Below the pieces are notes generated by a model. It saw nothing but the letters and a program-made list of their open reading frames with translations, was not told where the DNA came from and ran no database searches. Source: Candidatus Oxydemutator sp. (GTDB lineage Bacteria > Pseudomonadota > Gammaproteobacteria > Poriferisulfidales > Oxydemutatoraceae). From it: a stretch of 64,000 nucleotides of DNA. The stretch covers positions 1,696,001 to 1,760,000 of the forward strand of contig OZ241883.1 of NCBI GenBank assembly GCA_965203445.1, read 5' to 3'. This document shows, piece after piece, positions 23,209 through 26,806 of this stretch. Every line of letters starts with the position of its first letter. Position 1 is the first letter of the stretch. The position numbers and the translations under genes were made by a program.

Positions 23209-23253
23209 CCGCAGGCCCGTGATGTAACCCTCTCCCCCTAGGAGAGGGTGGGC
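23209..23253 (+). repeat. 45-bp direct repeat copy 1, containing a REP-like hairpin
   Basis: CCGCAGGCCCGTGATGTAACCCTCTCCCCCTAGGAGAGGGTGGGC; second copy at 24113-24157. Confidence 0.8.
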
Positions 23254-23936
23254 CGATGTCGACGCCTCGGCAGGTAGCGCAGGTGGCTTACGTCGGCGTG
23301 CACCCGCTGGCCGCCCGGGCGCAGCACCGCGTAGCCGTACTGGTGCGCCAATGCCAGCGCGTCCCTTTGTGCGATTATGCACGCCATCGCCGGCGCCAGC
23401 GTATTGTCGTCGTATTCGCGCATGAGACGCCGAAAGTTGGGCAGCGTCCACTCGCGCATCCGCTCGACGTCCTCGCAGCGCAGTTTGTGCTTGACCTCGA
23501 TGACCGCGACGACCTCGCCGTTCATCATCAGGATGTCAAACTCGCCTTCTCGGCCGCGACGGCTGACTCTGACGTTGGCGCGGACGTACTCGAACTCCAG
23601 GTCGCCGAGGCGCGGTTCCTTGTTCAATGCCCGGAAGAAGAACTCCTCGGTGGCGCTTCCCCGGGTGTTGGTTATACCGCCGATTTCCTTGTACATTTCG
23701 CGCTTGGCTTCGGCCGCTTTCGCGATTGCTTTTTGGAGTTTTTTGTTGGCCGCCTTGTTAGCCGCCTCGGACTCGGCGTGTCGCTTATCAGCCACGGCGC
23801 GCCACGCCTCCGCTTTGGCGCGCCACTTATCCAATTCGGCGCGCCATGCATCCAATTCGGCACGCCACGCGGCCGCCTCGGCGTTGCTTTTGGCAATTTG
23901 TTCGAGACTCCGTTTTACTGATTCGAGTTCGTTCAT
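23238..23936 (-). CDS. Coiled-coil + PD-(D/E)XK nuclease-like protein (DUF3782-like)
   Basis: N-terminal heptads (WRAELDA/WRAELDK), then G..TEEFF...EFDILMMNG...IEVK. TACAAT lies 7 nt before the ATG; alternative start at 23945. Confidence 0.75.
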   Translation of the reverse strand: MNELESVKRSLEQIAKSNAEAAAWRAELDAWRAELDKWRAKAEAWRAVADKRHAESEAANKAANKKLQKAIAKAAEAKREMYKEIGGITNTRGSATEEFFFRALNKEPRLGDLEFEYVRANVRVSRRGREGEFDILMMNGEVVAVIEVKHKLRCEDVERMREWTLPNFRRLMREYDDNTLAPAMACIIAQRDALALAHQYGYAVLRPGGQRVHADVSHLRYLPRRRHRPTLS

Positions 23937-24112
23937 GGCCGTCATTGTACGCCCGTACGCGCGGTGCGCAAGCGGACAAAATCGAAAATCGAGGGTAAAA
24001 ACAGCCAAGTCGTTGGCATGTTCGGCAAATAAACCTGACGAACGGTTTTGCCCGAACAGGAAACCCTGCTCCCCCTCCCAAAGGGATAGGGAGCAAGGAG
24101 TGGGAAAGAGGA

Positions 24113-24157
24113 CCGCAGGCCCGTAACGTAGCCCTCTCCCCCTAGGGGAAGGCGGGC
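24113..24157 (+). repeat. 45-bp direct repeat copy 2, containing a REP-like hairpin
   Basis: CCGCAGGCCCGTAACGTAGCCCTCTCCCCCTAGGGGAAGGCGGGC, preceded by another hairpin at 24067-24095. Confidence 0.8.
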
Positions 24158-24175
24158 GGAACCTATGCTATTCTG

Positions 24176-25437
24176 GGGAATTATATACATGACACCACCA
24201 GACGAGATTGAATGAAGACACACCGAACAATCAGATACCGTTTGCATCCGCAGACACGGGCCAAGGCCCGCAAGTTGGCGGGTTTGGCGGGTGCGTGCAG
24301 GTTTGCGTGGAATCATTTCGTGGGTAAGTTGCGGGATGAGTATGCCGAGGACGGCGAGCGTGATTACCGGTTTTATTCGCTTGGTAAGAGGTTCACAGCG
24401 TTGCGAAGGGATGACGCCACGTGGTTGCAGGAGTACTCCATGGCAATAGTGCGCCAGGCGTTGAAGCCGATAGAGACTGCATACAGGCAATTCTTCAAGA
24501 AGGAGGGCGGCCTGCCGAGGTTTCACGCCAAGTATGTCCGCCCGGATAGTTTCCCGTTATGCGCCGGCGCATTCCGTATGCGCGGGCGCTATCTGTACAT
24601 CGCCAAGGTTGGCGAGGTGCTGCTACTTGGCCACAATCCCTATCCGGACGGCGTGCCCAAGTCGGGCACGGTCAAGCGGGAATGCGGCAGGTGGTATGCG
24701 TATATCACGTACGAAGTGGAACAATCCGAAGCATTGAAACCTGTAAGAGAAGTCGGCATAGACCGCAACGTCGGTCAGGTAACATTATCCGACGGGACGA
24801 TGTATCGTATGCCGGATACGGCAAAACATGAACGTCGCGTCAGGCGTTATCAGAAGAAGATGGCCAGGCGTCAGAGGCCGAACCACAAGAAGGGGATCAA
24901 GGCGTCGAACCGATGGCTACGCGCACAGTTGCTTCACCAGAAGGCACAGGCCACGTTGCGACACGTCAGACGGAATTGGTGCCATGGCGTATCAAGGCAA
25001 GTAGCTGATAAATACTCCCTTGTGCACCTGGAGCAGTTGAACAATCCAGGGATGACAAGAAGCGCCAAGGGAACAAAGGAGAAACCCGGAACCAGCGTTC
25101 GCGCGAAGACCGGACTGAACCGCGTGATCCTGGCGTCATGCTGGGGCAAGTTTCACCAGTGCCTGGACTACAAGACGAATACGAATTACATAAACCCCGC
25201 ATACACAAGTCAGACGTGCAATAAATGTGGGAACGTAGATAAAGAAAACAGAAAGACGCAGGCGGCGTTTATTTGCACCGCTTGCGGTCATCGGGACAAT
25301 GCGGATGTAAATGCCGCATTGAATATATTGGCCCTCGGGAATAGGGCTGCTGGACGTGGAGGCGGCGAGGTTACTTGGCCCATGAAGCGTCAAATGGATA
25401 CACGGCACCACTTGGTGGTGTCATGTATATAATTCCC
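24176..25437 (+). mobile_element. Non-autonomous TIR-bounded element (IS1595-like ends) carrying only tnpB
   Basis: Perfect 25-bp inverted repeats GGGAATTATATACATGACACCACCA (24176-24200) and TGGTGGTGTCATGTATATAATTCCC (25413-25437). Direct repeat CTATTCTG at 24168-24175 and 25438-25445. Confidence 0.9.
24212..25432 (+). CDS. tnpB: RNA-guided endonuclease TnpB
   Basis: N-terminal YRLHP...GACRFAWN, RuvC-I GIDRNV, RuvC-II LEQL, zinc finger CNKC/CTAC, RuvC-III ADVNAALNI. Confidence 0.93.
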   Translation: MKTHRTIRYRLHPQTRAKARKLAGLAGACRFAWNHFVGKLRDEYAEDGERDYRFYSLGKRFTALRRDDATWLQEYSMAIVRQALKPIETAYRQFFKKEGGLPRFHAKYVRPDSFPLCAGAFRMRGRYLYIAKVGEVLLLGHNPYPDGVPKSGTVKRECGRWYAYITYEVEQSEALKPVREVGIDRNVGQVTLSDGTMYRMPDTAKHERRVRRYQKKMARRQRPNHKKGIKASNRWLRAQLLHQKAQATLRHVRRNWCHGVSRQVADKYSLVHLEQLNNPGMTRSAKGTKEKPGTSVRAKTGLNRVILASCWGKFHQCLDYKTNTNYINPAYTSQTCNKCGNVDKENRKTQAAFICTACGHRDNADVNAALNILALGNRAAGRGGGEVTWPMKRQMDTRHHLVVSCI

Positions 25438-25457
25438 CTATTCTGAAACGATGTTTG
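25325..25457 (+). ncRNA. Putative TnpB omega-RNA (scaffold in tnpB 3' end and right TIR; guide from the flank); boundaries approximate
   Basis: GGCCCT...AGGGCT hairpin, GACGTGGAG...ATGAAGCGTCAA core and terminal hairpin 25398-25428. The position is typical for omega-RNAs (inference). Confidence 0.55.
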
Positions 25458-26806
25458 ATCACGTTGCCGGGCGCCTGACGGCGCTTGCCGAGCGCCTGCG
25501 CGGCGAGGTGCGGCTTACCGAGGACAATATCGCGGACACGTTGCGCGAGGTGCGCGCGGCGTTGCTCGAGGCCGACGTCGCGGTGTCGGTGGTCGGCGAT
25601 TTCATCGAGACGGTGCGCGGGCGCGCGCTCGGCGCCGAAGTGAACCGCAGTCTGACGCCCGGCCAGGCGCTGATCAAACTGGTGCGCGAGGAGTTGACCG
25701 CGCTGATGGGCGGCGCGTGTGCGACGCTCGCGCTCAACGTGCAACCGCCGGCGGTGGTGCTGCTCGCCGGCCTGCAAGGCGCCGGCAAGACGACGACCGC
25801 GGCCAAACTCGCGCTCCATCTGCGCGAAAAGAAAAAATCGGTCGCGCTGGTCAGTTGCGACGTCCATCGCCCGGCCGCGATCGAGCAGCTGGCGCAACTC
25901 GCGCGGCAGTGCGACGCCGCATGCTACCCGACCGACGCCGCGGCGCCGCCGGTGGTCGCGGCGCGCGCCGCGCTCGAACGCGCGCGCCTCGATTTTCAGG
26001 ACGTGTTGATCGTGGATACCGCGGGCCGCCTGCACGTGGACGACGCGATGATGGACGAGATCAGGGAGTTGCACGCGGCGTTGTCGCCGGTCGAGGTATT
26101 GTTCGTCGTGGACGCGATGACCGGGCAGGACGCGGTGGTCGCGGCGCGCGCCTTCGGCGAGGCGCTGCCGCTGACCGGCGTCATTCTGACCAAGGCCGAC
26201 GGCGACGCGCGCGGCGGCGCCGCGTTGTCGGTGCGCGCCGTGACCGGCAAGCCGATCAAGATGATCGGCGTCGGCGAGAAACTCGACCGGCTGGAACCGT
26301 TTTATCCGGAGCGCATAGCGTCGCGCATCCTCGGCATGGGCGAGATCGAGAGTCTGATAGATCAGATTGAGAGCAAAAGCGACGCCAAAAAGACGCGCAA
26401 ACTCGCCGCCAAGATCAAAAAGCGCAAGGGTCTCGACCTCGAGGACGTGCGCGATCAGCTGCGTCAGATGCAGGACATGGGCGGCGTCGCCGGGCTGCTC
26501 GACAAACTCCCCGCGGCGATGGTCGGCAAGGTCGCGGCCAAGGCCGATACCGCGTTTGGCGACCGCCAGACCAAGGCCATGGTGGCCGTCATAGATTCGA
26601 TGACGCCGCAGGAGCGCCGTCGCCCCGAGATCCTGAACGGCTCGCGCAAAAAACGCATAGCCGCCGGTTCCGGCACCTGTATCCAGGACGTCAACCGCGT
26701 GCTGAAGCAGCACAAGACGCTGCAAAAGACGATGAAGAAGTTCGGCCGCGGCGGCGCCCGCCAGATGATGCGCGGGCTGGGGGGAGGGCCCTTTCCCGGC
26801 CGCTGA
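25451..26806 (+). CDS. ffh: Signal recognition particle protein
   Basis: [27 protein letters not shown] and M-domain [10 protein letters not shown]. Confidence 0.97.

Follow-up and report, generated by a model that had tools for sequence, protein, structure and literature searches.

A tnpB element with IS1595-type ends whose right terminal inverted repeat is predicted to belong to the guide RNA scaffold

Introduction

Cas12 descends from TnpB, which also serves in its own right as a compact genome editor. Insertion sequences of the IS1595 family have terminal inverted repeats (TIRs) starting GGG, 8-bp AT-rich target-site duplications (TSDs) and passenger genes. The subject of this work is a 1262-bp element with tnpB as its sole gene and with TIRs and a TSD of this description, which occupies positions 24176-25437 of a 64,000-nucleotide stretch of DNA (the window) from Candidatus Oxydemutator sp. 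(assembly GCA_965203445.1, contig OZ241883.1, positions 1,696,001 to 1,760,000 of the forward strand); coordinates given below are window positions unless marked as genome positions. Comparison of the element with its homologues indicates that the right TIR is very probably part of the scaffold of the TnpB guide RNA (omegaRNA).

Several related systems have been described. ISDra2, of the IS200/IS605 family, has neither TIR nor TSD and moves in single-stranded form, through a Y1 transposase, beside the 5-nt sequence TTGAT, which is also the target-adjacent motif (TAM) of its TnpB (PMC13565253). TnpBs associated with DDE transposons have been divided into six groups, DDE-1 to DDE-6 (Altae-Tran et al. 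2023, PMC10691335), and that article describes inverted terminal repeats around all six, tnpB 3' ends that in most of the cases examined are no more than 250 bp away from the transposon end, and solo TnpBs with ends like those of transposase-bearing copies. A 2026 review (PMC13565253) gives the DDE families with TnpB as ISL2, IS630 and IS1031, and suggests that inflexible target recognition by TnpB keeps it rare in prokaryotic DDE transposons. Finally, two sources on the eukaryotic Fanzors describe a short, fixed TSD that is present in both scaffold and TAM, and Fanzor1 guide RNAs without a pseudoknot (PMC10711439, PMC13565253). The association of TnpB with DDE transposons and the presence of TIRs in Fanzor guide RNAs are already published. 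The main text of PMC10691335 names IS630 and contains no mention of IS1595 or of a pseudoknot, and the literature search found no paper on a link between IS1595 and TnpB or on the guide RNA structure of a prokaryotic DDE-associated TnpB; supplements, those of PMC10691335 included, may list IS1595.

Results

The predicted structure of the right end of the element was examined by folding positions 25331-25437 with RNAfold, which returned three stem-loops and then an unpaired tail of 9 nt. The last of the three is exactly the hairpin that had been described in the original prediction, in which ATACACGGCACCAC (25398-25411) is paired with GTGGTGTCATGTAT (25415-25428) through 13 pairs, including one G-U, with one additional C/A mismatch. 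It had been proposed there that this hairpin represents a TIR built into the omegaRNA, with loss of the hairpin among homologues named beforehand as evidence to the contrary. A terminal hairpin was retained in 53/53 homologous right ends, despite their sequences in this region, of 29-80 nt, being unrelated; the median z-score was -3.0, with 38/53 below -2, and the 3' arm incorporates a median of 13 of the 20 inner TIR bases (minimum 5). The hairpins show compensatory changes and G-U pairs among homologues. Indeed, 107 G-U pairs were counted on the sense strand as opposed to 52 on the antisense strand, and the sense strand was the more stable in 36 of 49 comparisons, both of which point to an RNA rather than to a palindrome at the level of DNA. 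No comparable hairpin partner was observed at the left element end in the copies examined. A promoter and terminator scan of positions 24050-25600 returned no sites of either kind, and the hairpin is not terminator-like.

Next, covariation across the whole structure was analysed in an alignment of 48 right ends (A3), in which 91.1% of cells are paired compared to 82.0 ± 0.6% in column shuffles (none of 500 shuffles reached the observed value) and 32-50% in a control with slid partners. Both sides change in 14 of the 28 pairs. Alignment A3 is a realignment of 48 of the 53 sequences in an earlier alignment (A2), which misaligned the tips of four class-4 rows; these rows and sequence E248k were omitted, and class 4 was scored by script outside A3. 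Stem 1 occurs in the variants GCCCU/AGGGC, GCCUC/GGGGC, GCGGU/ACCGC, GCGCU/GGCGC and GCCGG/CCGGU, and two of its five pairs change on both sides. Pairing in the two helices of stem 2 (helices 3 and 4) extends to 96.3% and 89.1% of cells, respectively, with changes on both sides in 7/8 inner pairs. As the closing helix, class 3 has GACAG/CUGUC, and classes 2 and 4 have GACGG/CCGUC, in place of GACGU/GCGUC. The proposal of a TIR that forms the terminal hairpin of the omegaRNA is supported, then, by conservation and covariation, and additionally by a second, independent line of evidence that the original prediction did not contain, namely a predicted, covarying pseudoknot at the TIR tip.

This pseudoknot is predicted to join the loop of stem 1 to the six bases with which the element ends, such that its 3' strand would stand directly before the guide. 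Pair 11/156 of alignment A3 is AU in 38 sequences, GU in 5 and CG in 4, and pair 12/155 is UA in 45, UG in 2 and CG in 1. Where one side alone changes, the result is mostly a wobble-compatible transition (GU 5 and UG 2, versus 3 unpaired cells), and under a strict definition of stem 1 the pseudoknot has six of six Watson-Crick pairs in 39/44 sequences. At least five compensated forms are present among the homologues. Loop GGGAAU is accompanied by tip AUUCCC in most of class 1, GGGAAC by GUUCCC in a copy from the same genome (E895k), GGGACU by AGUCCC in classes 2 and 3, which span several orders, GGGGAC by GUCCCC in Caldilineaceae-labelled copies, and GGCGCU by AGCGCC in class 4, in which the entire TIR is different; a wobble form, loop GGGAUU with tip AGUCCC, also occurs. 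Class 4 and several other copies have elements whose two tips are not alike, and of the two the right one is complementary to the loop, indicating that constraint by the transposase alone is an insufficient explanation. The pseudoknot strands are located at -101 to -96 and -6 to -1 with respect to the element end. In the ISDra2 structure determined by cryo-electron microscopy the corresponding strands are at -106 to -102 and -6 to -2, with the guide running from +1 (PMC10097598). The correspondence in position argues for a scaffold that stops at the TIR tip, in which case the guide should start at the TSD.

The same stretch is also under coding constraint. The spacer from CGTCAA to the six terminal bases of the TIR tip varies from 29 to 80 nt, yet its length is 2 modulo 3 in 46/53 ends. 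The first in-frame stop codon falls at -8 to -6, within the TIR, in 33/53 ends (TAA in 28, TAG in 3 and TGA in 2). The location of the tnpB stop codon inside the TIR, which was reported originally for the window copy, is correct to the base and is, on the strength of this recurrence, a conserved feature.

The position of the guide with respect to the TSD was then considered from the flanking sequences. Element boundaries, set by TSD and TIR alone, were obtained for 53/82 sequences and 38/80 loci. Boundaries scoring below 8 were dropped from the first set, and seven that were not at GG...CC tips were dropped from the second (L151, L164, L169, L195, L202, L205 and L208). Merging of orthologous and duplicate sites left 67 unique insertion sites, the counts thus covering copies with recognisable TSDs away from contig ends. 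The TSD is exact at 46 of these, has one mismatch at 17 and two mismatches at 4, and is 76% A+T compared to 49% in the flanks; its first position is never G (0/67). At position -1, immediately 5' of the left TSD, 66/67 sites have a purine (48 G and 18 A, the remaining site having T and none C), including all 22 sites from the second set, the records of which are labelled with several phyla. Conversely, the mirror position past the right TSD is purine-equivalent at only 33/67 sites (p = 9e-12 versus left -1), and IS1595 elements that lack TnpB have a purine at 14/32 ends (p = 3e-10 versus left -1). This control comprises the 32 ends of 16 autonomous elements with GGGAA- or GGGAC-type TIRs, a first search having found seven and the remainder following the addition of 20 regions; eight 753-bp elements with other TIRs were excluded. 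A G at -1 is found also at the empty sites of three congeneric genomes. Position -3 is weakly purine-rich, and a weak bias is apparent at -3 and -2.

Since the orientation-specific purine is located where the TAM must lie if the guide starts at position 1 of the TSD, these data support the TSD register, and the guide probably does start there. It would begin CUAUUCUGAAACGAUG..., with a length assumed to be 16-20 nt, and the target comprising TSD and flank would read CTATTCTGAAACGATGTTTG. Whether or not the purine itself is the TAM we consider to be an evenly balanced question. In the original prediction the guide was proposed to comprise the TSD plus the ffh start, which is supported by the position of the pseudoknot and by the purine, and the TAM was placed in the left flank, which fits the bias revealed when the bases 5' of the TSD are compared across insertions. 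The alternative offered at the same time, namely that the scaffold ends at TCAA and is followed by a fixed guide resembling the TIR of the element, was not upheld. The best match of a 16-mer from such a guide to the element's own left end is only 8-13/16 in 48/48 elements, and a fixed guide against its own TIR was rejected on this basis. The features of the element and its insertion site are collected in Table 1.

Table 1. Coordinates of the tnpB element, its predicted RNA features and the adjoining gene (window positions)
Feature	Position	Strand	Basis or remark
Candidate TAM position, ATG; G24167 is -1, directly 5' of the left TSD	24165-24167	+	flank bias
Left TSD copy, CTATTCTG, 8 bp	24168-24175	+	single copy in the empty site of 3/3 congeners
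Left TIR, GGGAATTATATACATGACACCACCA	24176-24200	+	inverted-repeat match
tnpB, 406 aa	24212-25432	+	TAA stop at 25430-25432, within the right TIR
Predicted omegaRNA stem 1, GCCCU/AGGGC, with 7-nt loop CGGGAAU (25336-25342)	25331-25347	+	96.3% of cells paired; 2/5 pairs change on both sides
Predicted pseudoknot 5' strand, stem-1 loop bases GGGAAU	25337-25342	+	complementary to the TIR tip
Predicted omegaRNA stem 2, with a variable inner stem enclosed by closing helix GACGU/GCGUC (25353-25357 paired with 25387-25391)	25353-25391	+	
Predicted terminal hairpin	25398-25428	+	3' arm, 25415-25428, is inner right TIR
Right TIR	25413-25437	+	inverted-repeat match and two-copy TIR core
Predicted pseudoknot 3' strand, AUUCCC, last 6 nt of the element	25432-25437	+	helix 2, 99.0% of cells paired in 48 sequences
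Right TSD copy, CTATTCTG	25438-25445	+	
Predicted guide, right TSD CTATTCTG and flank AAACGATGTTTG, including the ffh ATG (25451-25453)	25438-25457	+	pseudoknot position and left -1 purine
ffh (SRP54 GTPase)	25451-26806	+	Pfam SRP54 3.9e-69, SRP_SPB and SRP54_N; starts 5 nt past the right TSD

The tnpB product was compared with protein profiles and with solved structures. Pfam matches were obtained to Cas12f1-like_TNB (1.1e-16; 61.2 bits against a cut-off of 26.3), HTH_OrfB_IS605 (1e-07) and OrfB_IS605 (4.6e-07; 30.5 bits, exactly its cut-off of 30.5), and the NCBIfam model guided_TnpB (NF040570) scored 212.6 bits against a cut-off of 100. In an alignment (A4) of the protein with six relatives of 36-55% identity, residues D184, E274 and D365 are invariant, as are C336, C339, C355 and C358, which form a CxxC...CxxC arrangement; the former we take to be the RuvC catalytic residues and the latter the zinc finger. 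These residues line up with the motifs of solved TnpBs, the nearest chains being 9j09_A (8.4e-24) and the ISDra2 TnpB chains 8bf8 and 8h1j (1.1e-17). Judged by profiles, conserved residues and structural relatives, the protein appears to be a bona fide TnpB.

The affiliation of the element was examined in the context of its own genome, which is a single contig of 2.38 Mb with 63.6% G+C and 100% completeness. The genome contains 22 DNA matches to the element. Eight of these are near-full-length, their aligned parts being 77-86% identical to it, and a second subfamily of copies is at 67-70% identity. All copies examined have GGGAATTATATA...TATATAATTCCC-like tips and 8-bp AT-rich duplications, and the open reading frame (ORF), of 406-434 aa, is intact in 12/12 full copies. 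Two copies at different sites differ at 1 position in 1371 nt, indicating that the family has moved recently. With one mismatch or fewer permitted, the 12-nt tip motif GGGAATTATATA is found at 62 sites in the genome, 33 of them paired and 29 solo with no partner within 3 kb; within the window it is confined to the two TIRs of the element. One pair of tip motifs, at genome positions 113341-113503, is 163 bp in extent and resembles a miniature inverted-repeat transposable element.

An autonomous element of 2616 bp with an 8-bp TSD is located at genome positions 1978350-1980965. It encodes a 307-aa protein with matches to DDE_Tnp_IS1595 (1.2e-43) and Zn_ribbon_IS1595, and this gene is the sole IS1595 transposase match in the genome. 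Over its first 13 nt the TIR of the window element matches that of the autonomous element exactly, and in the other TnpB copies 23/26 nt are alike (sequences read by eye). The autonomous element also carries a passenger of 411 aa, which resembles a DNA methyltransferase bearing an HNH motif at its C-terminus. Among 41 related genomes, TnpB of this type is present in 17 and an IS1595 DDE match in 26, including all of the TnpB-positive genomes (17/17), albeit as fragments only in two. Conversely, no match to a Y1 transposase of the IS200/IS605 type was found in the complete genome, while control genomes responded. A scan of one genome per species confirmed 510 relatives. The records of the best 80 bear the labels Gammaproteobacteria (several orders), Caldilineaceae, Rhodothermales and Paracoccaceae, among others; many of these 80 show GGG..TATATAC TIRs and exact 8-bp TSDs. 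By these comparisons the TnpB elements are classed as non-autonomous IS1595-type elements and not as members of IS200/IS605. Membership of the latter family (IS1341 group, tnpB-only) was rejected given the presence of TIR and 8-bp TSD and the absence of both a fixed 4-5-nt 5' motif and Y1. The shared ends, the co-occurrence across genomes and the near-identical pair of copies are consistent with mobilisation by the IS1595 transposase.

Several other features of the family were observed. Comparison of the copies at genome positions 174463-175774 and 975120-976431 shows 36 differences over 1312 positions, 24 of them clustered in element positions 1098-1240, which correspond to the tnpB 3' end and the omegaRNA start (stems 1 and 2); the cluster suggests either a conversion tract or fast compensatory change. 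Copies at genome positions 970249-971503 and 247602-248387 have good TIRs and unmatched TSDs (ATATAATG versus AAATATCC and ATTATATA versus TATAATAA, respectively), which may be explained by recombination between copies; beside the copies with unmatched TSDs is a neighbouring copy in the opposite orientation, 3.6 kb away. In addition, a minimal 753-bp IS1595-family element with GGTACTTGAC... TIRs and 8-bp TSDs is multicopy in two related genomes.

With respect to the insertion itself, a repeat search of the window returned a perfect inverted repeat of 26 nt (24175-24200 and 25413-25438; 100% complementary). The outermost G/C is common to the repeat and to the TSD, which leads to the reading of a 25-nt TIR and an 8-bp TSD. 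Exactly two occurrences of the 24-nt TIR core were counted in the window, compared to none across 100 shuffles. In 3/3 congeneric genomes the corresponding site is empty and reads ...gtG-CTATTCTG-cgcgcc-ATG, with CTATTCTG present once and the element absent, indicating that the insertion is real; the ffh orthologues of these three congeners are 80-81% identical to that of the window. Contigs from two public runs (kind unknown) span both junctions of the filled site without differences, with one loose contig end at 24163 running into unrelated sequence, and the empty allele is in no contig of these runs.

The surroundings of the insertion merit brief description. In the three congeners CTATTCTG is situated 6 nt ahead of the ffh ATG, and a ribosome-binding site is not obvious. 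The 8-mer resembles a -10 box serving a leaderless ffh mRNA, and duplication of such a box by the insertion may be the reason why an insertion 5 nt from the essential ffh gene is tolerated. The right TIR additionally holds an outward-facing TATAAT. Upstream of the element, a 256-aa ORF (23238-24008, minus strand) encodes alanine- and lysine-rich repeats, with AWRAELD present twice, and has no Pfam match. The left flank contains, at 24064-24152, a palindromic repeat, GCCCTCTCCCCCTAGGGGAAGG, which resembles repetitive extragenic palindromic sequences, has 24 matches in the genome at four mismatches or fewer, and adjoins several element ends and solo ends.

Discussion

The explanation that we favour, with a probability as a whole of roughly 0.68, is that this is an IS1595-type non-autonomous element in which the RNA scaffold ends with the TIR, the guide is drawn from the TSD and empty alleles are cut. 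According to this explanation, the last ~107 nt of the element (25331-25437) would serve triply, as the C-terminal tail and stop codon of TnpB, as the right TIR and as the omegaRNA scaffold. In its role as DNA, the right TIR would be bound by a DDE transposase supplied in trans. In its role as RNA, the sequence would form a scaffold of stem 1, stem 2, a terminal hairpin with the TIR as one arm and the GGGAAU/AUUCCC pseudoknot, and would end at the transposon tip, so that the guide would be whatever adjoins the tip, in the present case the TSD and the first bases of ffh. The target would be the element-free allele, X-TSD-Y, with a very short TAM, the -1 purine, at the 3' end of X. The occupied left junction would be spared because its match to the guide is limited to the 8-nt TSD, and the occupied right junction because the TIR tip (...CCC) puts C at -1. 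Cutting of empty or precisely excised alleles would then favour restoration of the element by recombination, that is, the logic of IS200/IS605 TnpB adapted to a DDE transposon, and copies at purine-flanked sites would persist as a consequence of this cutting. From the sequences we infer that the RNA is transcribed and has its 3' end as described, that the nuclease is active, that the purine has the meaning assigned to it, that IS1595 mobilises the element and that homing occurs.

A number of observations weigh against this explanation. The fold energy of the window copy taken as a single sequence is not significant, with a z-score of -1.27 and 25/200 shuffles folding as well, and the sequences within a class are kin, so that cell counts overstate the number of independent events. 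An Rfam scan of positions 23800-25800 (E ≤ 10) gave six weak matches, all far under the gathering scores and none relevant. Exceptions to the pseudoknot are also evident, namely two tips reading AGCCCC, with an A/C mismatch, and one reading AAUCCC, with an A/A mismatch. Over 31 further loci the pseudoknot had six of six pairs in 18, five of six in 8 and four of six in 5, scores which are biased upward since the scan took the best-scoring hairpin at each locus; in the same scan no convincing stem 1 was found in two Rhodothermales-labelled loci. Positions -2 to -5 of the left flank are nearly uninformative, leaving the purine as a signal that could feasibly mean something other than a TAM, and we know of no precedent for a one-base TAM among characterised TnpBs. 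Finally, the inner TIR of the window copy (CATGACACCACC) is unlike that of the transposase-bearing element (CTTAAATCTACA), which makes the present mobility of this copy doubtful, and its nearest paralogue is 86% identical over the aligned part.

Different explanations of the same observations were considered. The RNA could feasibly be laid out as in the Fanzors, with a scaffold comprising the TIR plus the 8-nt right TSD, a guide that begins after the TSD (AAACGAUGUUUG...) and a left TSD that acts as an AT-rich, degenerate TAM. There is direct precedent for this arrangement, which speaks against the TSD register favoured here, in that Fanzor1 and Fanzor2* are described as having TIR and TSD in the scaffold, RNAs that extend ~15 nt past the TSD and the 5' TSD in the TAM (PMC10711439, PMC13565253), and the AT-richness of the TSDs relative to the flanks would be in keeping with it. 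However, the TSDs of IS1595 elements without TnpB are equally AT-rich, and an 8-bp TSD without a fixed sequence provides neither a defined part of a scaffold nor a defined TAM. A TSD that acted as TAM would, moreover, render the right junction, in which the TSD is followed by Y, a target. The arrangement also leaves unexplained the -1 purine, which would be 9 nt from the supposed target, and the pseudoknot ends at the TIR tip, to be compared with its end 1 nt before the guide in ISDra2. We consider a Fanzor-like layout to be unlikely on these grounds.

The hairpin and the complementarity between loop and tip might instead be features of the DNA or of the coding sequence, for example transposase-binding repeats, a palindrome for end recognition or codons of the TnpB tail, in which event any omegaRNA would end upstream or have a fixed guide. 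The region is indeed coding with a conserved frame, GGGAAT corresponds to conserved Gly-Asn codons, the TIR tip is in any case under constraint from the transposase, and the z-score of the single sequence is modest. Set against these points are the covariation of loop and tip in at least five forms, with the right tip rather than the left matching the loop in class 4 and elsewhere, the wobble compatibility of most single changes, and a frequency of G-U pairs that is twice as high on the sense strand. Furthermore, the left end has no such hairpin, the site is not terminator-like and a fixed guide is excluded by the poor matches to the element's own end, all of which makes this possibility decidedly improbable. 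It is more improbable still, in our estimation, that the omegaRNA is real while the -1 purine reflects an asymmetric target preference of TnpB-type ends or an effect of promoter or context, with TnpB having another role or a longer TAM that is satisfied by some copies only. The control is admittedly small, with many of its 16 elements coming from one insertion sequence in one genome, and the weak bias at -3 and -2 could be read in this manner. Nonetheless, the bias is missing from the mirror position and from the controls, it holds in all of the second-set sites despite the several phyla with which they are labelled, and the purine is exactly where a TAM would be if the guide starts at the TSD.

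The explanation built on a TIR-ended scaffold and a TSD-derived guide allows a tentative proposal as to origin, which we rate as somewhat less than an even chance. A bacterial TnpB lineage may have been refitted for cut-and-paste transposition of the IS1595 type through triple use of ~107 nt, with the variable TSD serving as the guide seed and the TAM reduced to a single purine since the DDE transposase has no fixed target motif; nearly TAM-free nucleases, and retention or homing as a trait of DDE transposons, might be expected to follow. A guide RNA that copes with a transposase that needs TIRs and leaves variable TSDs has been described solely for the eukaryotic Fanzors, where the solution is a different one. 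The IS1595-TnpB family would therefore provide a concrete and testable bacterial counter-example, for which a pseudoknot strand in the TIR tip, a guide register and a candidate one-base TAM are predicted, and a clear case of three codes overlapping in one sequence. If a minimal TAM proves true, these nucleases of ~400 aa would have an unusually wide targeting range.

In comparison with the known systems, the element resembles ISDra2 (PDB 8bf8, 8exa and 8h1j) in encoding a predicted RNA-guided RuvC nuclease of ~400 aa, in having an omegaRNA that would overlap the tnpB 3' end and extend to the right end, in a pseudoknot that joins bases ~100 nt upstream with those just before the guide, and in a guide that would be drawn from the right flank. 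Similarity between the TnpB proteins is distant (E = 1.1e-17). Unlike ISDra2, it has TIR ends of the DDE type, the first eight bases of its predicted guide are the TSD, its candidate TAM is a single purine and no Y1 was found. With the Fanzors (Fanzor1 and Fanzor2*; Yoon et al. 2023, PMC10711439; PMC13565253) it shares the carriage of a TnpB-family nuclease as cargo of a non-autonomous cut-and-paste element and a TIR that is predicted to be in the scaffold, whereas its host is bacterial, its 8-bp TSD is variable and is predicted to belong to the guide, and the pseudoknot appears to have been kept and to use the TIR tip. The IS607 TnpB of ISXfa1 is likewise similar, in that the pseudoknot adjoins the guide (U-130/A-3 in ISXfa1) and the scaffold accommodates the limits that the transposase sets on the sequence, but IS607 elements have a serine recombinase, no TIR or TSD, and one right-flanking nucleotide assimilated into the scaffold. 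Compared to the usual members of IS1595, the window element lacks a transposase, carries tnpB as cargo and has a right end that would double as the scaffold of an RNA.

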